Positions 6,400-49,419 of a DNA stretch of 64,000 bases are shown one piece after another; within the stretch, counting starts at the first letter, position 1; the number at the start of each line of letters is the position of its first letter. The stretch covers positions 50,870 to 114,869 of IMG/VR virus record IMGVR_UViG_3300047462_000400. One strand, written 5' to 3'. A program made the position numbers and the translations under genes. The DNA comes from a virus. Under the pieces are notes generated by a model. That model worked only from the letters and a program-made list of their open reading frames with translations. It made no database searches and had not been told where the DNA came from.

Positions 6400-7434
6400 A
6401 TGGATCCCCGCGGCTTCCCGACCACGTTGCCCGAGTTTCAGCGGGTGTTTCCTGACGATCGCGCGTGCGCGACGTACCTGGAGCGCCTGCGATGGCCCGA
6501 GCAATTCGACTGCCCCAAGTGCGGGGTGGTCGGGGAGCCGTACCGCTTCGACGCGAGGCCCCACGTGCTCCGCTGTCGCTCGTGCAAGGCCGATGTATCG
6601 CTCCTTGCGGGCACGGTCATGCAGGCGAGCCACACGCCGCTCTCGACCTGGTACTGGGCCGCGTACCTCGTCACGACGCAGACGCCCGGACAGAGCGCGC
6701 TCCAATTCCAGCGCCAGCTCGGGCTCACACGCTACGAGACGGCGTACATGATCCTCCAGAAGCTCCGCGCCGGCATGGTGCGGCCCGACCGCGACACGAT
6801 CGGAGGAGAGCACCATGTCGAGGTCGACGAGACGCTCGTCGGTGGTCGCAAGGGACGGCACCACAAGGTCTACGTGCTTGGCGCCGTCGAGGGCCGCATG
6901 CGCAAGACTGGCGAGCACGCGAGCGCGACGGGCCGTGAGCAGCACCGCGACGGCAAGCCGGTCAAGCGCCCGTACTATGCAGGCAGGCTGCGCCTCCAGC
7001 TCGTGAGCGACCGCCAGGCCGCGACGTGCGAGGGCTTCGTGCGCGAAAACGTCGCGCCGAAGACCAACGTGCGCACCGATGGATGGCAGGGATACGATCG
7101 ACTCGGCGTCATGGGCTACGTGCACCGTCCGATCGTGATGGCCGACCCCGCGATGAACGACGCGCACCTCCCGCTCATCCACCTCGTGTTTAGCAACCTC
7201 AAGGCGTGGATCCTTGGCACGCACCACGGCACGAGCCAGCAGCACTTGCAGGCATACCTGAACGAGTATGCCTTTCGCTTCAATCGCCGGTTCTCCCCGA
7301 TGACGGCGTTCAACTCGATCTTGGGGATCGGCATGAAGACGATCCCGCCGACGTACGCCGCGCTCTACTCGGGCCGCTGGCAGCATCCGGGTTCGCAGCC
7401 TCAAGATCCTCAGACGGAGATGCCGTTCGCATGA
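6400..7434 (+). CDS. IS1595-family (ISXO2-like) DDE transposase
   Basis: N-terminal zinc ribbon (CPKC, CRSC), HTH, VEVDETLVGG, TDGWQGY, HLQAYLNEYAFRFNRR. Confidence 0.92.
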   Translation: MDPRGFPTTLPEFQRVFPDDRACATYLERLRWPEQFDCPKCGVVGEPYRFDARPHVLRCRSCKADVSLLAGTVMQASHTPLSTWYWAAYLVTTQTPGQSALQFQRQLGLTRYETAYMILQKLRAGMVRPDRDTIGGEHHVEVDETLVGGRKGRHHKVYVLGAVEGRMRKTGEHASATGREQHRDGKPVKRPYYAGRLRLQLVSDRQAATCEGFVRENVAPKTNVRTDGWQGYDRLGVMGYVHRPIVMADPAMNDAHLPLIHLVFSNLKAWILGTHHGTSQQHLQAYLNEYAFRFNRRFSPMTAFNSILGIGMKTIPPTYAALYSGRWQHPGSQPQDPQTEMPFA

Positions 7435-7649: not shown

Positions 7650-8860
7650 CTACGTCAGCCATCGGTGCTCCGCACGGAGAAACGCGATGGGAGAAAACCG
7701 GATAGGCATGGTCTCAACGAGGCGGAGGCCGGCCATGACGATCGCCTGCGTGTCCTGCTCGGGCAGGGTCCCCTCTCCGAAGGTCCCGATGCGCTCCATG
7801 ACGTTGGAGGCCCGCTCGCGCGCGCGGAACTTCCCGGTCCCCTCGAACTTCTTCCGGATGAGCCCTTGCTTGTTCTTGAGCGCAGAGAGGTTGTCCTTCG
7901 CCACGCGCTCGGCCAGCTGGTTGATGGAGTGGCTGACTTGCCAGTCGCGGAACCCGTCGCGGTTCGCGGTCAGGATCTCGATAGACGGCGCGGTCAGCTC
8001 CGCGATGATGAAGCCGGGTACCTCGCCGACGTACTTCTCGAACATGAAGAGCCCGCGCGCGCGGACGTAGATGTCGTTCTGCTTCTTGTCAGGGGGTCGT
8101 CCACCGGCTGCGGGCCACCTCGCGCGTGGACGCGCATCTCGTTGGCACTCCGCCCACGCTCGCGCGCGAGCGGTTTCCAGTACCAAAACTGCTCGACGAA
8201 GTTGGCGACCCCGGTGCCGATGTTCGCGACCGGGTAGCTCGCGAGGAGGTTCCCCTCACGGCTCACCATGCGGAGTCGCCCCTTGCTGACCTCGACGCGC
8301 ACGCCGAGAACCTTGTCGCGGTTCGCGATGAAGTCGTCGTTGGAGAGGAACGCTCCGTAGTGCTCCAGCGCTGCGTTCACGGCCGCGCGTTGCTCCGGAG
8401 TGATCCCCACCTTCGCGCGCGGCGCTTCCCGCGCCTGCACGCCCGGCAGCCGTTGCTGGTCGACCATGTCGCGGTGGACCTGCTCGACCTCGTCAGCGAG
8501 CCAGTTGACGATGGTCTGGTCCCGCGTCCGCTGGTTGAACCCATCGAAGAATGCTTGCCGCGCTTCCTTCGATGGATTGTCGCCGAGCTGGCTGCGGAGG
8601 TCCGCGTCGTGGATGTCCCGGGCGACGTCCCACCGGAGCTGTTGCAGCATGTTCTTGGCGACCTGCTGGTAGTCACCCTTCGTCTCGAGCCGGATGACGC
8701 TGTTCGGGTCGCGCTGCCGCATCTCCTCGGCTTCGTGCATCTGGTCGCGGACCCATTCGAGGAAGTAGCTCCCCGCGAACTGCTCGTCCGCGTAGGCCGC
8801 ACCGGCGGCTTCCGCTTGCTCGAGGGGATCGACGGCGACCGGCTTCTTCTTGCGAGGCAT
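7650..8860 (-). CDS. Multi-module protein split by an apparent -1 frameshift at a C5 run (8093-8097)
   Basis: ORFs 7994-8860 and 7650-8186 join as ...PVDDP/PDKKQNDIY if one C is added. Confidence 0.6.
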
Positions 8861-8869
8861 GAGGACTCC

Positions 8870-10828
8870 TTATCGAGCGCGCGCGCGACGGCGGGTGGAT
8901 GCGGAACGGGTGGGCGGCCGGCGAGCCGTGGTGGTCGGCGCGGGCGGCAAGAGCAGCGGGGTGGGCGCGGGAGGCAGGGCTGGGGGGCCTGCGCGCCGCG
9001 ATTCGTCGACATCCGCGCGGTCGCGGTCAGCTCCCCAGCTCTCCGCGTAGCCGTCCACCGTCTCCCAGACCCACTTGAGGTCAGCGACCATCTCGCCGAG
9101 GTCGACGGTGCTGTAGAGGAAGTGGACGATGTTCTCGTAGCGATCGAGCTCGGAACGGTTCTCGCTCGAGAAGAAGTCGAGCGCGAGAGTGCCGTCCTGG
9201 AAGACGCTGACGAGCACAACGACGACCTGGTTGTACTCCGGGCTGTACGTCACGAAGTACGCGGACTCGTTCTTGTCGCTCCAGCGGTGCCCGCCCGGGA
9301 TGGTTTTCGGTTGGCTGCCGCCGACCCTGCCCGAGAGGTCCCTGGCGATCTTCATGACGGCGTCGGGCGTCATCTGCGGCGCGCGGCTGCTGATGCGGCG
9401 GGTGGACCCCCCACGCGGGGACTTCCTCGCTGCTACGCGACGACTCCGGCGCTCCTCCGTGGCGAACTGGACGTAGCCGCCCGCGCGGTCGGCCGCGCTC
9501 TTGGCGTCGCTGTAATCCTTGAAGGGACCGGCGACCTTGCGGCCGTTCGTGCCGACCGCGATGTAATCGTGGACGGCGTGCTGACCGTGCCGCGGGCTGC
9601 GACGGTGGTGGGGCGATTCGAACGCGACCTTGCCGCGATACGCCTCGTCGATGAACCGGTCGAGCGGCTCCGCGGTCGGAGAGAGTTCCCCTTCGGTCCG
9701 CGCGGACGGCGCCGACGAGTGCCAGTACCCGCGCTCCTCCCACGCCTGCCCGATGGTGTACGCGCGCCGCCTTGCGCCGAACTCCTCGCGGGAGCCTCCC
9801 GGGTAGAAGAACCATACCCCCTGGACCGAGACGAGGATATGCGACGCCCCGTTCTCGTCGCGCTCGTGCTTGGCGAGCGCCGGCAGCGAGGAGAAATCGC
9901 GTGCGACGTGCTGCCGCGTGCTCTCCCGCGTCGTCCGACCAAGGTGGCGACGATGGTGGCGACGTCCGCGCGTGGACTCGCTCGGCACGTGTCGCCCGCG
10001 CCGGACGTCCTCGCGGCGGAACCGCTGCTCCTGGTGCCAGAGCCGCGCGATGTAGTCGGCCGCCTTCTCGCTCGCCTGCTTGATGGTGCGGCCGTACCCG
10101 ATCTGCTCGCGCTCGACGCCGGTGGAACCGTCTTCCTTCTGGTATGGCGTGAGCACGACGGCGGCGAACTCCATGCCTTTCCGGTGACCCATCGGCCGCT
10201 TCGAGCGGATGTCGCTGCCGTGCCGGCCGCTCGCCTGCTCGGGCGTGGGGTCCCGGTAGACCTCGTACTGGATGCCGCGCTGGGCACCGGTGTGGACGAG
10301 CTCAGCGTTGGGGCTGAGCGCACCAGTGACGACGTACATGCGCGGTTCGCCGGTAGTGCGCTTGCGCGCCAGGCTCGGGTGGCGCTTGGCCAGCCACTCG
10401 GGCGGGTTGCGGTACATGTCCGGCGGCGGGCCGTAGATGAGCCCATCGTCGCCGACGTAGAGCTCGAACCCCCCGTAGGATTGCGCGGCCTCGCTGAGCT
10501 CGTCGCCGTGCTTGGGCCATCCGCCGTCCCAGAACCCGCTGCCATGCCCCTCGCGGTTCAGCCAGAAGTCGTGGCCGGCGATCTCCCACCGCCCGTACTG
10601 GTTGAACCGCGCGGAGTCCTGCTCGTCCAAGATGAGCTCACCGAACCGCTCCTGGAAGTCGGCGCAGTCCTCGATCATGAGCTCCAGCGTCTCCGGGGCG
10701 ATGTCCTCCACGCCGTAGTTCGCGTCGAGCGGTTCACCGCCCTGCTCGTCTGCGTTGTCGTTGGTCGACCAGAGCGCTGCCTCGATGTACGCGCTCGTGA
10801 ATGCGTCTAGCTTCTTTCCGCGTGCCAT
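8870..10828 (-). CDS. Multi-module protein with Arg/His-rich linkers; N-terminal AYIEAALWS...AGHDFWLNREGHGSGFWD module
   Basis: ATG 10828 with GGAGG upstream; globular segments separated by basic linkers. Confidence 0.8.
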   Translation of the reverse strand: MARGKKLDAFTSAYIEAALWSTNDNADEQGGEPLDANYGVEDIAPETLELMIEDCADFQERFGELILDEQDSARFNQYGRWEIAGHDFWLNREGHGSGFWDGGWPKHGDELSEAAQSYGGFELYVGDDGLIYGPPPDMYRNPPEWLAKRHPSLARKRTTGEPRMYVVTGALSPNAELVHTGAQRGIQYEVYRDPTPEQASGRHGSDIRSKRPMGHRKGMEFAAVVLTPYQKEDGSTGVEREQIGYGRTIKQASEKAADYIARLWHQEQRFRREDVRRGRHVPSESTRGRRHHRRHLGRTTRESTRQHVARDFSSLPALAKHERDENGASHILVSVQGVWFFYPGGSREEFGARRRAYTIGQAWEERGYWHSSAPSARTEGELSPTAEPLDRFIDEAYRGKVAFESPHHRRSPRHGQHAVHDYIAVGTNGRKVAGPFKDYSDAKSAADRAGGYVQFATEERRSRRVAARKSPRGGSTRRISSRAPQMTPDAVMKIARDLSGRVGGSQPKTIPGGHRWSDKNESAYFVTYSPEYNQVVVVLVSVFQDGTLALDFFSSENRSELDRYENIVHFLYSTVDLGEMVADLKWVWETVDGYAESWGADRDRADVDESRRAGPPALPPAPTPLLLPPAPTTTARRPPTRSASTRRRARAR

Positions 10829-11022
10829 TACCGTCGCCTCCGTCGTGCGGGAGCCCGTTTCTGGGAAGCTCGCCTTCGTCGTGCGTATTCCTTGGCGAGC
10901 GTGTCTTGGATGATGTCCATGTCCTTCTACTCGCCCCACTCGGCGCTGTACTTGATCGCCATGCCGACCGCAGCCAGCTGCGCGCGGGCTGCTGTCAGGG
11001 CACGGGATGCTTCGAGGTTCAT
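10828..11022 (-). pseudogene. Small basic ORF interrupted by an in-frame TAG (10927-10929), or two 30-aa ORFs
   Basis: MNLEASR...EWGE*KDMDIIQDTLAKEYARRRR; coupled at both ends. Confidence 0.45.
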
Positions 11023-11513
11023 CGTCGCCTCCGTACCGGGGGTAGCGCGGGGGGCGCGCGCCGGTGCACGGGTCGCCGTCCCGCCGGCCGAACCGGCACT
11101 TGCAGCGTCCGCGTCATCGGCTGCCGCATCTCGTGGGCGGTGTGGCTCGGTTGCTCACGCATCGGGGGCGGCCGGCGGCGCTCGCCGACGTCCCGCTCCT
11201 CGTTCTCGTCGCGGAGCAGGCCCGCCACGAGCTCTTCGACGTCGCGCTTGTCTTGGATGGCCGCAATCACCCGCTGGAGCTGGTCGGCCTCGTGGAAACC
11301 GATGCCGAACGGTTCGAAACCGATGTCCTCAAGCTCTTCGCCGCCCGGCAGGCTGGCGAGGATGCGGAAGAGCAGCGTGGGGTAGTCGTTTGGCTTGTTG
11401 TCGTAGTTCGGCAGCCAGTTCCGCAGCTCGTCGATCATCGCTGCGACCGGCCGGCGCGGGGCAGGTACGGGTGCGGGTGCTGCCGGCGGTCTACTGCTTG
11501 AACGTCTGGCCAT
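11019..11513 (-). CDS. Acidic core flanked by Arg/Pro-rich termini
   Basis: GAGGAGG RBS, ATG 11513. Confidence 0.75.
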   Translation of the reverse strand: MARRSSSRPPAAPAPVPAPRRPVAAMIDELRNWLPNYDNKPNDYPTLLFRILASLPGGEELEDIGFEPFGIGFHEADQLQRVIAAIQDKRDVEELVAGLLRDENEERDVGERRRPPPMREQPSHTAHEMRQPMTRTLQVPVRPAGRRPVHRRAPPALPPVRRRR

Positions 11514-11515
11514 CG

Positions 11516-12772
11516 TTACCTCCTCACCGTCGTCTCGCGGTTGCGCCCACCGAGCTTCGCGCCACCACTTTTGCGTTTCGCCCAGACCGACGAGTAGCCG
11601 GAGGTTCCCCACGGGATCTCCTCCTGCCACCAGTCGAGCCCCTTGGCGGCCTCCTCGACCTCCTCTTCGGATCGACCGAGCTCCTGCGCGACCGCGCTGA
11701 TGACGTGCTCTGCGGAGGCGTACCCATCGTCGGAGGGGATACGGCCCCCCTTGTCGGTGTCCTCGTAGCCTTCCGCCTCGAGCTCGCCCTCGACGCCGGC
11801 CATGGTCTTCTCGGTCTCGAGGTCCCCGTTGACCGCTACTGCATCGCCGAACTCCGCGATACCGACAGCCGTCTCCGGATCGAACCCTTCGCTCTCGAGG
11901 TCGTAGCGGACCTGGTCACCGATGGTGCTCCAGCCGGTGGCCGAGCTCTCGTCAGCCATTCGCTCGACGACTTCTTCGATTGCGGTCCGGATCTCGTCGT
12001 GTCCGAGCACGTCGTTGCGGAACGCTTCGTCCTCGTCCGAGATGTACTCGGCGCCGGCGACCTTGTCCCCCCACCACTTCACCTTCTCGGGGAGGTCGAG
12101 ATCCTTGGACCAGCCGGACGGTCCCTCGTCGGCCCGGCCGTACCCGAGCAGCGCCTCCGCGATGACGAGCGCGCGCTGCTCCGGCGTGTAGTCCGCCTCG
12201 AGCGTCTCCAGGTCCATACCGATGGAGTCGAGCGCACTCTTGACGTCGCGGCTCTCGACGCTGAGGTCGTTCGCGTCGAAGTACGCGACCCGCGTCCAGA
12301 ACGGGAAGCCCACCTCGGCGGCTTCCTTGTCCCCGACGTACTCGCGAACCGGCTGAATCTGAATGAGTTCGACGGCGTGGCCGTCCGCGGCAGCGATGGT
12401 ACCGCCGGATGCGCCCGGGTCCATGTCGCCGCCGATCTGTTGCCACTCCATCGTGGGAATCGTGATCTCCATCGCGCTGCCTCTTGCCTCTCGCGTGACG
12501 GACGCTCGCCTGCCCGCAGCGGGCGCGCGCCCTTTCTTCATGTGAACCTTGATCTGGACGGTCTCCTGCGGGGAACCGTTGACGAGGGCCGTGAACCGGT
12601 CCCCGTGAGCGTGCTGGAGTTTCACGTCGGCCTTCAGCTCTCGGCTAAGCCACCGCTAGGCGGTCTGGAGCGGCACCTCGCCCCTCCTCAGCGGGAAGTT
12701 CACCGAGTCGGCCAACGGGTATGGGTCGATGACCAGGCTGGCGTCGCCTTCCAGCGGCGTCGTGAGGTCCAT
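11516..12772 (-). CDS. Acidic multi-module protein; in-frame TAG at codon 39 (12656-12658) if started at the coupled ATG 12772
   Basis: ATG 12772 overlaps upstream stop and is in frame with the 11516-12625 ORF. Confidence 0.65.
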
Positions 12773-13461
12773 CAATTCACCCGCCAGTAGACCAATCCGT
12801 TCTTGGTCTCTTCGATGTTGCCGTCGTAGCCCGACAGGAAGTGCCCGGCGCCGCCCGTGCTGACCGCCTCCTCGGCGGCAGCGTTGATGTCGAAGCCAGC
12901 AATCTCGATGGCCTTCGCAGCGGCGTCGTCGCCGTAGATGTCTTCGAGGTATCGCATCGGATCCTCGAGCTCCGAGTCAGCCTGGCTCTCGGCGAGCTCT
13001 TCGATCTCTTCCTGCGTGGGCTCCGGCCGCTCGCCCTCCTCGTCCTCCTCGGGCGCCTCGAATCCCGCTCGCTCGTAGTCGTCCCAGAAGTCGTCAGGGC
13101 GACGCTTGGCCGTGTGGGTGAGGTCTTCGATCCGCATGTCCAGCACGTCGCTATGGAGGTCGCGCCGAAGCCGGTCCATGTTGATGTGCTGCTGGATGAA
13201 GTCCTTGTTGAATATCTCGGGCTCCTGCTCGAGGTCTTGCTTGACGATCGCGGTTGCCAGCTCCTCGGCCTGGTCGTTGTTCTCGACGACGGCCCACTCC
13301 TTGTGACCCCCACCACGGATGGTGATCTCGTAGACCGTGCCGGTGCGGAAGCTCTCGAGCCCGCGGTTGCTCTTGATGCTGATGTCGTCGGGGTCGATGT
13401 CGAGCTCCCGCGCCATCTCCTCGAGCACTGCGTCCTCGTCCTCAAAGTCGATATCAGCCAT
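12772..13461 (-). CDS. Highly acidic protein (GHFLSGYDG C-terminal motif); DNA-mimic candidate
   Basis: AGGAGG RBS; very D/E-rich. Confidence 0.8.
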   Translation of the reverse strand: MADIDFEDEDAVLEEMARELDIDPDDISIKSNRGLESFRTGTVYEITIRGGGHKEWAVVENNDQAEELATAIVKQDLEQEPEIFNKDFIQQHINMDRLRRDLHSDVLDMRIEDLTHTAKRRPDDFWDDYERAGFEAPEEDEEGERPEPTQEEIEELAESQADSELEDPMRYLEDIYGDDAAAKAIEIAGFDINAAAEEAVSTGGAGHFLSGYDGNIEETKNGLVYWRVN

Positions 13462-13463
13462 TG

Positions 13464-13655
13464 TCAGTCCTCCTGGCGCGAGCTGAACTCGGCCTCCACT
13501 CTTTCCCACGCCGCCTGCGCTTCCCGGTCAGTCTCGAACCACTCGGCCTCCACGATGCCGTCCGTGGGCGGCTCTTGGTGTCTGCTCCGCGGCGCCGGCG
13601 GCGCTCGTCTCGGCGCTCGCCTCATCGTTCCCTTCGACCCGAATCGCTTCGTCAT
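13464..13655 (-). CDS. Small protein with basic N-terminus and acidic C-terminus
   Basis: GGAGG RBS; coupled. Confidence 0.6.
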   Translation of the reverse strand: MTKRFGSKGTMRRAPRRAPPAPRSRHQEPPTDGIVEAEWFETDREAQAAWERVEAEFSSRQED

Positions 13656-41010: not shown

Positions 41011-43398
41011 TCAGTTGTAGAGGCCCTCTTCCTGCTGATCACCGATGAAGCCCAGGAACTGGTCTCCATCGCCGAGGCAGGCGCAGGCCGCCGTGTCGGC
41101 TCCACGGTGCTGCGGGCCGGGGCCGGGCAGCGGGGTGGGGCCGGGCTGCCAGCCGCCCTGCTGAGCTTCCGGTCGCCACGCCTGGTGCTCCATGCCGGGA
41201 GCCCAGTCCCCGGGGGGAGCGCCACCGCCGCCGCCGTGATGGCGATGGTGATGGGGCGCCACGGGAGGCGACACCAGCGGAGGAGGCGCCACCGCAACGG
41301 GCGGAGCGGGAGGAGCCGGCGGAGGAGGCGGCGGAGGCACCGCGCCCGCGGGCGGAGGGGGAGGAGGCGGCGGGGGTGCCGCCGCGGATGCGTCGGGCGG
41401 AGGCGGAGGAGGCGGCGGCGCACCGGCCGTCGGATCCTGGCTCACGCCGGGCGGGAGGTAGCCGTACTGCCCCTGCATCGCCTGCGCACGTGCGATGTGC
41501 GGATGGAGATGCGCTGCGCACTGGTAGAGCGCCTCCTGGGGGACACCCGGGAACGCCGAGGTCAGCGCTCCGTAGATGTTGTTCGGGTTGGCGATCACGC
41601 TCGCCGCTCCCTGCACGGCCTGCTGGGGCGCGATGAAGCGCGGCAGGACCGACGAGATGGTGTGCGTGATGTCGCGGAACAGGTTGCCGACGCCGGTGAT
41701 CCCAGCAATCCCGGGGGGCTCACCTGGCGTGCTCTTGCCGGTCCCCCAGACGTTCTGGAGTGTGGGGAACATGTCCCCCATGCCAGCCGCCTGGTCGAGC
41801 GCTTGAGCTGCCGTGGGGAACATGCCCGTGTCGCTCGGGCTGCCGAGCGCGAACGGACCGACGTCGGGAGCGCCGACACCGGGCTGCGGATACGGCACGC
41901 TGCCGACACCGGGCTGCGGATACGCCTGCGGGTACGCGGGCGGACCAGACAGCGCGCCGGCTCCGCCGCCGCTCGAGACCGCCGTCTGGGGCGGGGTCTG
42001 CTTCTGGTTGATGTGCGCCGCGATCTCGGCCGGGTAGAGCCGCGCGATGAAGCTCTTCTGGAGCCCCGCGCTGCTCGTGTCCTTCGGGGCGAGGAGCGGC
42101 ATGAAGACGCTCGACCAGAGAGTCGAGAAGAGCTTCACGCTGGAGCCGATGGCCAACCCCTCGAGCGTGCTTCGAACGAACGGTTGCTCGACGAAGACGC
42201 TCGCGACGGCGGGGACCGCCGCCAGGCCGACGTTGGCCGCGATGCGGAGGAGGCCGGGGGCCGCCGCCACGTTGAGCGTGTTGGCGAGCGTGCCCGCCCC
42301 ATCGCTCGTGAACTTGTCCTTGGGCTTGTCGGTGGCCGCCGGATCGTAGGTGGCGAGGAATCGGTCGATTCCGTCCGCCAGCACGAACCCGAGGCCGCCG
42401 GCGATGCAGGCCACCGCCATCTCGGCGACGTACATGCCGCGCCCCTCACGCGCGAACATCCTGCGCGAAGTCGAACGCTTGTAGCGGCGGCGCGGGCGCG
42501 AAGCCTCGGCGACCGTCTGCTCCTCACGCGCACGCTGACGACGCCGACGCGGACGGCGCGGCGCTTCGTACGCAAACGTCTCCCGCGCGCGACGCCGACG
42601 GGGTCTCGTGTGCGAGGTGCCCTTCCGGCGACGGCGCGCCCAACCCTTCTTCGCGGCCTTCGCGTGCGCGGCCTTGTCGTTCTTCCACGCCTCGCTCGCG
42701 CGAGTCCGCCGACGGGGGCGAGAACGCGGACGGCGCGTCGTCTCCTCCATCATGTGACCACCGGTCGGAGCGTGATGACGGCGGCGGCGGCGAGCCGGTC
42801 GACGAGCCTCGGCCGCAGCAGCGCGCGCGACCGGAGCCTCGCGAGCTCCGTGCCTCTTGCGCTTGCGCCAGCCCTTCTTTGCGGCCTCGCTGCGCTCACG
42901 CTTGGTCTCGCCCTTTCGGCGCCTCGGCCGACGACGGGGACGAGATGCTTCCTTGGTGGTGGTGGAGCGACGCCTAGCTGCCATGTCTTCCTCTCGTGCG
43001 ACTACGGCGCGAATGCCGTGGCCGAATGTGATGGTCCTCTTGACCTTGAGCCCCTTGGGGTCGAACTGACGAATCCGGATGTACTGATCGGTGACGTGGA
43101 CCTTGCCGTACTTGTAACCGTGCGACTTGGCCCAAGCCTTCGCCTTGCTGTCCGTCCAGCCGGCGCTCCGATCGAAGAGGAGAGACTGGACGTCCATCGA
43201 AGGACGTCGCGCCTCACCAATCGGGGGAGTGGCAGCAGGACGGGCAGGTGCGGATCGTGGTGCAGACGGAGGTCGTGCGACCGCTCCCGAAGAACGCGGA
43301 GCAACCGCCGAGCGTGTCGGTGCCGGCCAGCGATCCGCGACGCGACGGCCACGTCGAGAAGCGCTGAGTTCGGCGAGGCGGTTGTCGTAGAGCCCCAT
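41011..43398 (-). CDS. Arg-rich core/membrane protein (candidate DNA-condensing capsid-membrane linker)
   Basis: Compact N-module, about 200 aa of Arg-rich repeats, hydrophobic helices, Pro-rich C-terminus. Confidence 0.85.
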   Translation of the reverse strand: MGLYDNRLAELSASRRGRRVADRWPAPTRSAVAPRSSGAVARPPSAPRSAPARPAATPPIGEARRPSMDVQSLLFDRSAGWTDSKAKAWAKSHGYKYGKVHVTDQYIRIRQFDPKGLKVKRTITFGHGIRAVVAREEDMAARRRSTTTKEASRPRRRPRRRKGETKRERSEAAKKGWRKRKRHGAREAPVARAAAAEARRPARRRRRHHAPTGGHMMEETTRRPRSRPRRRTRASEAWKNDKAAHAKAAKKGWARRRRKGTSHTRPRRRRARETFAYEAPRRPRRRRQRAREEQTVAEASRPRRRYKRSTSRRMFAREGRGMYVAEMAVACIAGGLGFVLADGIDRFLATYDPAATDKPKDKFTSDGAGTLANTLNVAAAPGLLRIAANVGLAAVPAVASVFVEQPFVRSTLEGLAIGSSVKLFSTLWSSVFMPLLAPKDTSSAGLQKSFIARLYPAEIAAHINQKQTPPQTAVSSGGGAGALSGPPAYPQAYPQPGVGSVPYPQPGVGAPDVGPFALGSPSDTGMFPTAAQALDQAAGMGDMFPTLQNVWGTGKSTPGEPPGIAGITGVGNLFRDITHTISSVLPRFIAPQQAVQGAASVIANPNNIYGALTSAFPGVPQEALYQCAAHLHPHIARAQAMQGQYGYLPPGVSQDPTAGAPPPPPPPPDASAAAPPPPPPPPPAGAVPPPPPPPAPPAPPVAVAPPPLVSPPVAPHHHRHHGGGGGAPPGDWAPGMEHQAWRPEAQQGGWQPGPTPLPGPGPQHRGADTAACACLGDGDQFLGFIGDQQEEGLYN

Positions 43399-48771: not shown

Positions 48772-49419
48772 TTACAGGGCTCCGTCTTCTGCGAACGAGT
48801 AGTAGCTCGGTCTCTCTACGTCCCCTCCGCAGATGATGTGGTCCATGAGGTCGATGTTCACGATGTCGAACGCCTTCACGAACGCCTTCGTCGTGTCCTT
48901 GTCTGCCTGGCTGGGCTTCGCTTCGACGCCTGACGGGTGGACGTGGAAGAGGATGACGGCGTGCGCACCGTCGATCAGCGCAGCCTGGAGCGTCGGGACC
49001 ATCGGTGCTGCCACGCTCGACGCTTCTCCACGACCGGTCTCCCACGACCCCACGTGAAGCAGATGCAGGTTGAGCGTCACGAGGCCGAAGACCTCGTTCA
49101 CCTCACCGCCGATGAGCTCCTGGATGTACCGGAACGCCTTCTTGGGGTCGTTCAGCGGACCGATACTCTCCGCGAGCGCGTTGCACGCCGCGAACCGTTC
49201 CATGTCCTTCTGGGCCGTGAGGAACGGTCGACACCTTGGCTCTCCGGGCGGATTGAGCGGCATGGCCCCTGGTACCGAGTGCGGGCGGACCTGCTCGGCC
49301 ACCTCTCGTGCACGGATTCCCGCGCCGACCGGCTCGTGGCACCCGCACCCCCCGTTGCCTCGCCGCCGCACGATTGCGTCCGGGTCGTAGACGACCCGAG
49401 CTGTCCGTTGCTGAATCAT
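48772..49419 (-). CDS. RadC-like JAB-domain protein
   Basis: E...HVHPSG...PSQAD...DHII; ATGA coupling. Confidence 0.88.
   Translation of the reverse strand: MIQQRTARVVYDPDAIVRRRGNGGCGCHEPVGAGIRAREVAEQVRPHSVPGAMPLNPPGEPRCRPFLTAQKDMERFAACNALAESIGPLNDPKKAFRYIQELIGGEVNEVFGLVTLNLHLLHVGSWETGRGEASSVAAPMVPTLQAALIDGAHAVILFHVHPSGVEAKPSQADKDTTKAFVKAFDIVNIDLMDHIICGGDVERPSYYSFAEDGAL

Follow-up and report, generated by a model that had tools for sequence, protein, structure and literature searches.

The window analyzed in this work is a 64,000-nt stretch of DNA (positions 50,870 to 114,869) from IMGVR_UViG_3300047462_000400, a 116,275-bp record of a large uncultivated soil virus with direct terminal repeats; all feature coordinates are given in the window numbering. 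Its G+C content is 67%, and long spurious open reading frames (ORFs) therefore abound. A frame plot of the G+C content at third codon positions (GC3) places all true genes of the region from 7650 to 13509 on the minus strand, the same strand that carries the structural gene array, and megablast searches of this region show no match to deposited phages. This region of the high-GC virus, referred to below as the cargo block, forms an operon with translational coupling, and its genes encode modular accessory proteins that are of the "polyvalent protein" type. Its ORFs are listed in Table 1 as A245, B369, C203, D689, E288, and F178. Five complete genomes, designated G000 to G004, were used for comparison.

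The block encodes small modules (40 to 150 aa, several of them very acidic) connected in series by Arg-rich linkers that are short and disordered. D689 contains five of them, M1 to M5. This ORF maintains GC3 values of 0.8 to 0.97 in a single frame throughout, and three contigs are recorded with an identical 652-aa protein, which rules out a frameshift or an assembly artifact; D689 is therefore a genuine multimodule ORF. In an AlphaFold2 (AF2) model of its residues 327 to 689, based on a 61-row alignment, M3, M4, and M5 have predicted local distance difference test (pLDDT) values of 90 to 98, the segments between them have values below 50, and the tail is disordered. None of the block proteins, whether from the window or from G002, has a Pfam match. 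The sole PHROGs match among those of the window connects residues 38 to 169 of D689 with phrog_1915, a stand-alone phage family of 141 positions whose function is unknown. Fold searches with M5 return only weak matches to a common α/β arrangement (type III secretion chaperones and PsiB; Z scores of 5 to 6.5).

In related viruses, the same modules are found as separate genes, in other orders, and with other fusion partners. A search of 5.8 billion proteins retrieves 93 relatives of D689, ranging from 359 to 1051 aa, most of which have only M1 in common with it, about 20% of the query; some contain RadC, InPase, or AdoMet-decarboxylase domains. In G001 and G002, the D689 modules are spread over two to three genes in different frames and are reordered. 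Two complete relatives carry M4 at the end of the E288 homologue and not in the D689 counterpart, P0003 has the order M3-M4-M5-M1, and other modules recur among the relatives in varied order. The description of these genes as polyprotein-like in the initial annotation, which was made from the DNA alone, is thus borne out: independently folding modules are joined by disordered basic linkers, and relatives differ in how the modules are ordered, split, and fused.

The linkers are marked by a short motif, φ-x-E-[A/S]-[R/P]-R, where φ is A, V, T, M, or L (for example, VSEARR, VDEARR, ASEAPR, and VDESRR). In the window and ten loci, EARR is found 20 times versus 3.3 expected (z = 8.5). Compared to shuffles that keep the composition of each protein, [VAILM].E[AS][RP]R is found 31 times versus 2.2 expected (z = 19) in the 93 relatives of D689, where it is limited to close, Arg-tailed family members, and [VAILMT].E[AS][RP]R is found 31 times versus 1.3 expected (z = 27) in 119 relatives of B369. 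In the block genes of the five complete genomes, the latter pattern occurs 22 times versus 0.8 expected, a count that is reached in none of 200 shuffles; the other genes of these genomes, with an Arg content of 8.9% versus 9.6% in the block genes, show only a small excess, much of it coming from one protein. A weight matrix trained on the relatives only finds 13 hits in the block genes of the window, versus 2.0 ± 1.35 in shuffles; this is 6.3 hits per 1000 aa, versus 0.45 per 1000 aa in the other genes of the virus.

The motif is strict in its Glu. DARR, QARR, EGRR, EVRR, and ELRR all occur at chance frequency, and the absence of any excess when Asp or Gln stands at the Glu position points to a specific pocket rather than to charge or helix capping. 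Among 72 nonredundant instances, for which the search pattern fixed the Glu and the following [AS][RP]R and left the residue two positions before the Glu free, that residue is Ala in 23, Val in 17, Thr in 9, Met in 6, and Leu in 4; the residue after the Glu is Ala in 55 and Ser in 17. All synonymous codons are in use at the motif, so selection acts at the protein level and a nucleotide signal is ruled out. The initial annotation had proposed x-R-E and A-x-E as the signature of the linkers. Across the window and related loci (289 proteins), these patterns prove to be compositional noise (324 xRE versus 342 expected, 401 AxE versus 380, and 36 ARE versus 34). A Glu-anchored mark at the junctions does exist, in the form of φ-x-E-[AS][RP]R, and compositional bias, named there as a possible refutation, accounts for the patterns first proposed but is unlikely to account for this one.

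The 72 instances lie 0 to 11 residues before module starts (LDAFT.. of M1, HVADF.. of M3, and VRDYIAV.. of M4) or 5 to 10 residues past module ends (..ASWQxDxxGxVD-EARR of M5 and VWAKRK-x-TEEARRR of B369) and are also found inside the leaders, of about 15 residues, and the tails of single-module genes. Where pairwise alignments end internally, the end point is three to four times more likely than a random point to lie within 5 residues of the motif. In the AF2 models, the window sites are located in linkers or at their edges, with pLDDT values below 50 to 60, and the domains that they separate have values of 90 to 98. Two of the block copies in the window are canonical, VDESRRAG in D689 and QAREAPRAK in E288, and the rest are mostly one-residue variants (ESTR, ESPH, EERR, ERRR, and EARG) at homologous linker positions.

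VDESRRAG, with a weight-matrix score of 16.2 and pLDDT values of about 52 to 56, is replaced in relatives by GEVDEARR, GAVDESRR, or GDMDEARR, and G002 has LAHEARRHHARKSP at the place homologous to QAREAPRAK. At the variant sites, relatives have E[AS][RP]R-(0-10 aa)-HVADF in place of TTRESTRQH and RRAAESPRRGGHAVRDY and RASEAPRRR in place of AFESPHHRR, and P0008, the closest relative, has KAAEARRSPRGGSTRRISSRAP in place of ATEERRSRR. The tails of C203 homologues include the canonical EVEEARRR and GEVDEARRR, and those of the B369 family follow the pattern VWAKRK-x(3-8)-[AT]EE[AS]RRR...RRR-stop; E[AESH]RR occurs 41 times in this family versus 4.6 expected. All nine peptides quoted in the initial annotation are present on the minus strand, and seven of them belong to linkers or tails. 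The other two do not fit: RARERAS is part of a gene fragment, inside a stretch that is globular and conserved (GKFRAKERAS in the intact G002 homologue), and LARERGRSANEMR begins where the coding-like GC3 signal of its ORF stops and another frame takes over.

Nearly every block gene in the relatives ends in RRR, with the codons AGG AGA CGN TGA followed by TG. These terminal Arg codons are not a tag but largely the Shine-Dalgarno sequence of the next gene and the overlapping stop and start codons read in frame. This reading covers the last three residues alone; the motif and the remaining basic stretch lie upstream and use CGN codons. The use of CGN codons in internal linkers and the lack of a start codon at a consistent distance also rule out that the linkers are fossil gene junctions with internal starts. 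For annotators, the caution is that Arg-rich C termini in tightly coupled high-GC operons are partly in-frame Shine-Dalgarno sequences.

Outside the block, the motif recurs, as had been claimed, in a 795-aa Arg-rich membrane protein of the capsid operon, with the copies AAEARRP, YEAPRRP, KEASRP, and VAEASRP. Its homologues in G001 to G003 contain one to four canonical copies, and the one in G002 also has tandem repeats of about 17 aa, ARETKVVQARRRPKHRR. IRAREVAE of a RadC-like protein, quoted as a further copy, has no Arg-rich stretch after it and departs from the motif.

Judged by sequence and predicted structure, the architecture of the block proteins belongs with polyvalent proteins, and the motif resembles the sites of giant-phage head proteases, with no such protease found. 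Polyvalent proteins of phages and conjugative elements combine many unrelated domains, two to fifteen of them, in one polypeptide, and their processing into units has been proposed (Iyer et al. 2017; PMC5512222). Like them, D689 has five modules in a single polypeptide, three of which AF2 confirms as separate folds; modules are rapidly shuffled between related elements (G001, G002, and P0003); and in distant M1-bearing proteins of other elements M1 is fused to RadC (PF04002) and InPase (PF18823), both listed among the polyvalent-protein domains (PMC5512222). In contrast to that family, no window module matches the described repertoire (ArdC-N, MPTase, RadC, InPase, ART, methylases, and others) in Pfam or PHROG, and no embedded zincin-like MPTase or other peptidase domain is found in these modules. 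The published account describes no conserved junction motif, and the word "linker" is absent from its text (PMC5512222).

T4 gp21, phiKZ gp175, and SPN3US gp245 cleave head and ejection proteins at sites of the L/I-x-E, S/A/G-x-E, and A-x-E↓S types (the arrow marks the cut). The A-x-E↓S sites of the SPN3US gp245 prohead protease are proven, with Val or Ala preferred at P4 (PMC10052503). The likeness to Glu-type head-protease sites that the initial annotation had pointed out does hold for these A-x-E↓S sites of giant phages (PMC10052503): the presumed P1 of the motif is Glu, P3 is small or aliphatic (Ala or Val), and P1' is Ala or Ser, and its sites occur in leaders and between units, several per protein. 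Unlike the prohead-protease sites, the motif continues past the Glu-Ala with an additional [R/P]-R that is strict, and the major capsid genes of the present viruses show no such sites. No recognizable tailed-phage head genes were seen in G004, where they were searched for, and searches of the five genomes match no S77 or S78 homologue, with the limit for S77 given below.

In adenoviruses, Arg-rich DNA-condensing peptides are released from the precursors pVII and pX (mu) by adenain cuts on both sides, and in pX the basic region is followed by a hydrophobic segment. The adenain sites are (M/I/L)xGG↓x and not Glu-based. The 795-aa protein of the window also has a basic region and then a hydrophobic segment, although homology is not claimed; unlike in adenoviruses, no C5- or C48-type protease is found in the five genomes.

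Going by the sequences, the motif can tentatively be read as a processing site, with a likelihood that we put somewhat short of even. A processing site is the best fit to the required Glu, the Ala or Val two residues before it, the Ala or Ser after it, and the placement on both sides of the modules. The motif would then serve for recognition, with an endoprotease cutting between Glu and Ala/Ser as the most plausible partner. Cutting would free the modules and trim their basic leaders and tails, part of each tail being a feature that the Shine-Dalgarno sequence of the next gene would force on the gene. From the Arg-rich region of the membrane protein encoded in the capsid operon, this enzyme would also generate short basic peptides by cutting, and it would be encoded by the host or belong to an unrecognized family. 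Packaging of the cargo proteins in the particle is possible, and indirect hints at packaging and delivery with the DNA are the strand that the block shares with the structural gene array and the motif copies in the capsid-operon protein. The more general proposal, that a family of large tailless, membrane-containing bacterial viruses matures both its modular cargo and an Arg-rich core or membrane protein by cuts at φ-x-E↓[A/S]-[R/P]-R with a protease that is unrecognized or recruited from the host, is unlikely.

Several observations weigh against processing. No cleavage product has been observed, and no protease family is common to all five motif-bearing genomes. Peptidase_S77 (PF03420) has no match in G000 to G004, an absence that is weak, since control genomes are silent too and a divergent homologue is possible; Peptidase_S78 (PF04586) and C48 have no match there either. 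Thus, neither the T4 gp21-type protease invoked in the initial annotation nor an HK97-type or Ulp1/adenain-type enzyme is found in the five complete genomes. B369, considered as the protease, has a confident model without a protease-like fold. The copies in the window are themselves mostly variants, so the site may be decaying there; many instances stand at homologous positions, so their independent origins are fewer than the raw counts; some module junctions, such as VWGKKDPNAHVEDGDYVVQG, have no motif; and the tandem repeats of the Arg-rich protein often have Gln or Lys in place of Glu, as in VVQARRRP.

Four further protease candidates were rejected. An S8 subtilase, considered as a kexin-like partner for basic sites, is present in G000 to G002 only (3 of the 5 genomes), and a rhomboid protease is present in G000 and G004 only (2 of 5). 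The GHKL protein with a HEATH sequence, considered as an embedded metalloprotease, is found in G002 only, apart from a fragment in the window, and the large protein with HEVVH is a glycosyltransferase/TPR protein. The subtilase (427 aa) is encoded outside the window, at genome positions 8517 to 9800 (minus strand; L017), among glycosyltransferase genes, and its homologues in G001 and G002 lie in open frames of 557 and 730 aa. A dedicated enzyme, if it exists, is probably encoded by the host or by the block itself, which belongs to the little that G004 has in common with the other genomes.

It is also conceivable, if rather doubtful, that the motif is not cut and that the Arg-rich segments are nucleic-acid-binding or docking tags, which would tether the modules of intact multidomain chains to viral DNA, to the core, or to a common partner, such as the very acidic A245 and B369 acting as chaperones. 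The motif always heads an Arg-rich stretch and reaches its highest repeat number in the membrane protein of the capsid operon, where the basic part of the chain probably points toward the DNA; a protease shared by the genomes was not found; two proteins of the block have net charges of -41 and -43; and another conserved peptide at C termini, [RP]LL(L)PP[AG]P, looks docking-like. However, a strict Glu that tolerates no Asp would be odd in a DNA-binding basic peptide, and the small or hydrophobic preference two residues before it would be equally odd. The basic run is interrupted in a quarter of the copies by a Pro at the third position, and the motif is retained in the leaders and tails of single-module genes, where a plain basic tail would suffice.

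Two explanations that assign the motif no role in the protein fare worse than docking does. It is improbable that the motif is a functionless by-product of high-GC composition, of in-frame Shine-Dalgarno and stop-start sequences internalized by gene fusion, and of the common descent of linkers. The last three codons of most tails do represent a Shine-Dalgarno sequence and an overlapping start (AGG AGA CGN TGA-TG), but the motif lies 5 to 15 residues upstream of them and uses CGN rather than AGR codons. The patterns named in the initial annotation are at chance, whereas φ-x-E-[AS][RP]R is enriched 10- to 25-fold over composition-keeping shuffles, with little excess in other genes of equal Arg content outside the Arg-rich protein. 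Block genes do fuse and split, and many copies are at homologous positions; yet the flanks of the 72 nonredundant instances are unrelated, and their spacing to the modules varies. As for DNA-level recombination joints that would serve module exchange between viruses and carry no protein signal, the preferential breaks of homology within 5 residues of the motif and the different module orders among genomes would be expected, but this explanation is hardly credible: all 12 nucleotides vary synonymously, the nucleotides around the motif tend to be no more conserved than the flanking linker DNA, the motif is too short for homologous recombination, and it is kept in leaders and tails that have no exchange partner following them.

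To our knowledge, the multieffector polyvalent proteins of phages are commonly predicted to undergo processing, but cases in which the actual cut sites are known are rare. A junction motif that is sharply defined and statistically solid offers exact residues for testing such processing and, if the processing-site reading is true, would supply the exact cut sites of "polyvalent" proteins; it can also be used to split hundreds of unannotated metagenomic proteins into functional modules. Processing of this kind, if true, would be a bacterial-virus counterpart of the polyprotein and core-protein processing of adenovirus or African swine fever virus. The copies in the Arg-rich capsid-operon protein hint at an adenovirus-like core maturation which, if true, would extend further the parallel between bacterial and eukaryotic jelly-roll viruses.

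Table 1. Genes, modules, and motif sites of the cargo block and related features of the window
Feature	Position	Strand	Description
A245	12772-13509	minus	First conserved block gene in the numbering used here; from GC3 frame plot; without linker motif
39-codon ORF, stop TAG	12654-12773	minus	First part of an N-terminal module that runs on into the next gene in G003
B369	11516-12625 (with rest of N-terminal module, 11516-12653)	minus	Rest of N-terminal module, basic linker, acidic core, disordered basic tail
VTREARG	12479-12499	minus	Variant site (EARG) in B369 basic linker
B369 acidic core	11516-12472	minus	Conserved, about 300 aa; net charge -43
C203	11019-11513	minus	Likely start MARRSSS at 11513; small module, then basic tail
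VGERRRPP	11166-11189	minus	Variant site (ERRR) in C203 tail
PMREQP	11148-11165	minus	Variant site in C203 tail
D689 ORF	8870-10939	minus	689 codons; likely start ATG at 10828, giving 652 aa; GGAGG 7 nt before ATG
M1	10412-10828	minus	D689 module; phrog_1915 match (E = 4e-27); net charge -22
M2	10022-10342	minus	D689 module
M3	9623-9904	minus	D689 module
M4	9458-9571	minus	D689 module (DYIAV...GPFKDYSDAK)
M5	9029-9361	minus	D689 module
Basic linkers of D689	10343-10411, 9905-10021, 9572-9622, 9362-9457	minus	
D689 tail	8873-9028	minus	
FRREDVRRGRH	9989-10021	minus	Linker or tail site
TTRESTRQH	9908-9934	minus	Variant site (E-S-T-R), three residues ahead of M3 start (HVARDF); pLDDT below 50
AFESPHHRR	9599-9625	minus	Variant site (E-S-P-H) at start of M3/M4 linker; linker pLDDT 45-61
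ATEERRSRR	9437-9463	minus	Variant site (E-E-R-R) at start of M4/M5 linker
VDESRRAG	8987-9010	minus	Only fully canonical copy in D689, just past last helix of M5
[RP]LL(L)PP[AG]P	8936-8959	minus	Second conserved peptide
E288	7994-8860	minus	Coding-like only down to about 8180; coding part 8180-8860
QAREAPRAK	8411-8437	minus	Canonical site in E288 linker
LARERGRSANEMR	8132-8170	minus	Quoted in initial annotation
F178	7650-8186	minus	Internal piece of a 599-aa GHKL-ATPase-like gene, residues 271-387 (7650-8084; tblastn and genome search)
RARERAS	7806-7826	minus	Quoted in initial annotation
IS1595-family transposase	6400-7434	plus	Adjoins F178
Arg-rich membrane protein	41011-43398	minus	Capsid operon, 795 aa; second motif cluster at 42436-42957, then hydrophobic segment
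IRAREVAE	49294-49317		RadC-like protein

G004 (L041 to L044; 75,451 bp) has the block, with the densest canonical motifs, in common with the virus of the window and shares few other genes with it. BLAST searches of G004 find no homologue of the three jelly-roll capsid genes, and there is no Pfam match in it for terminase, portal, or HK97 families. The block may be able to move between different virus types.

A245 has a net charge of -41 and homologues with 57 to 59% identity in G001 to G003; it has no match in Pfam or PHROG. The 39-codon ORF next to it is collinear with residues 1 to 38 of a 606-aa ORF of G003 (L005:9668-11488). An in-frame TAG (12654 to 12656, minus strand) splits what G003 has as one 606-aa protein, and GC3 is coding-like to either side of it. 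A recent nonsense mutation, the boundary of a split gene, or a read-through codon could account for it; TAG is the stop of 25 of the 139 called genes in the genome of the window.

B369 belongs to a family of at least 238 metagenomic proteins. Its AF2 model has a mean pLDDT of 94 and a predicted template modeling score of 0.79, with a disordered tail; searches with the model reveal no convincing fold match in the PDB (the best Z score is 6.0 over 62 residues) and no usable match in the ESM Atlas. The B369 core, A245, and M1 are all conserved and extremely acidic (Table 1), and the first two of these might mimic DNA or act as chaperones of the basic linkers.

C203 ends with the codons AGG CGA CGA TGA, which are of the Shine-Dalgarno/stop type. 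Its stop is separated from the D689 start by a spacer of about 190 bases (10829 to 11018), which is mostly open in the D689 ORF and has a weak GC3 signal; the counterparts of these genes in relatives overlap as ATGA.

The coding part of E288 consists of two helical or mixed domains and the linker with its canonical site, and its homologues in relatives have M4 at the C terminus as well. The E288 ORF leaves its coding frame and enters the F178 fragment, suggesting a deletion and an insertion of a mobile element in the virus genome; an IS1595-family transposase gene adjoins F178. The 599-aa GHKL-ATPase-like protein from which this fragment derives (HATPase_c_3, with a C-terminal HEATH) is intact in G002 only, and F178 is not a cargo module junction.

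The second conserved peptide, [RP]-L-L-(L)-P-P-[AG]-P, is found within about the last 30 residues in 10 of the 94 D689-family proteins, versus 0.5 expected: in the window and at the C termini of P0006, P0010, P0012, P0014, P0029, P0033 to P0035, and P0041. It stands after the last Glu-Arg-Arg site and may represent a docking motif.

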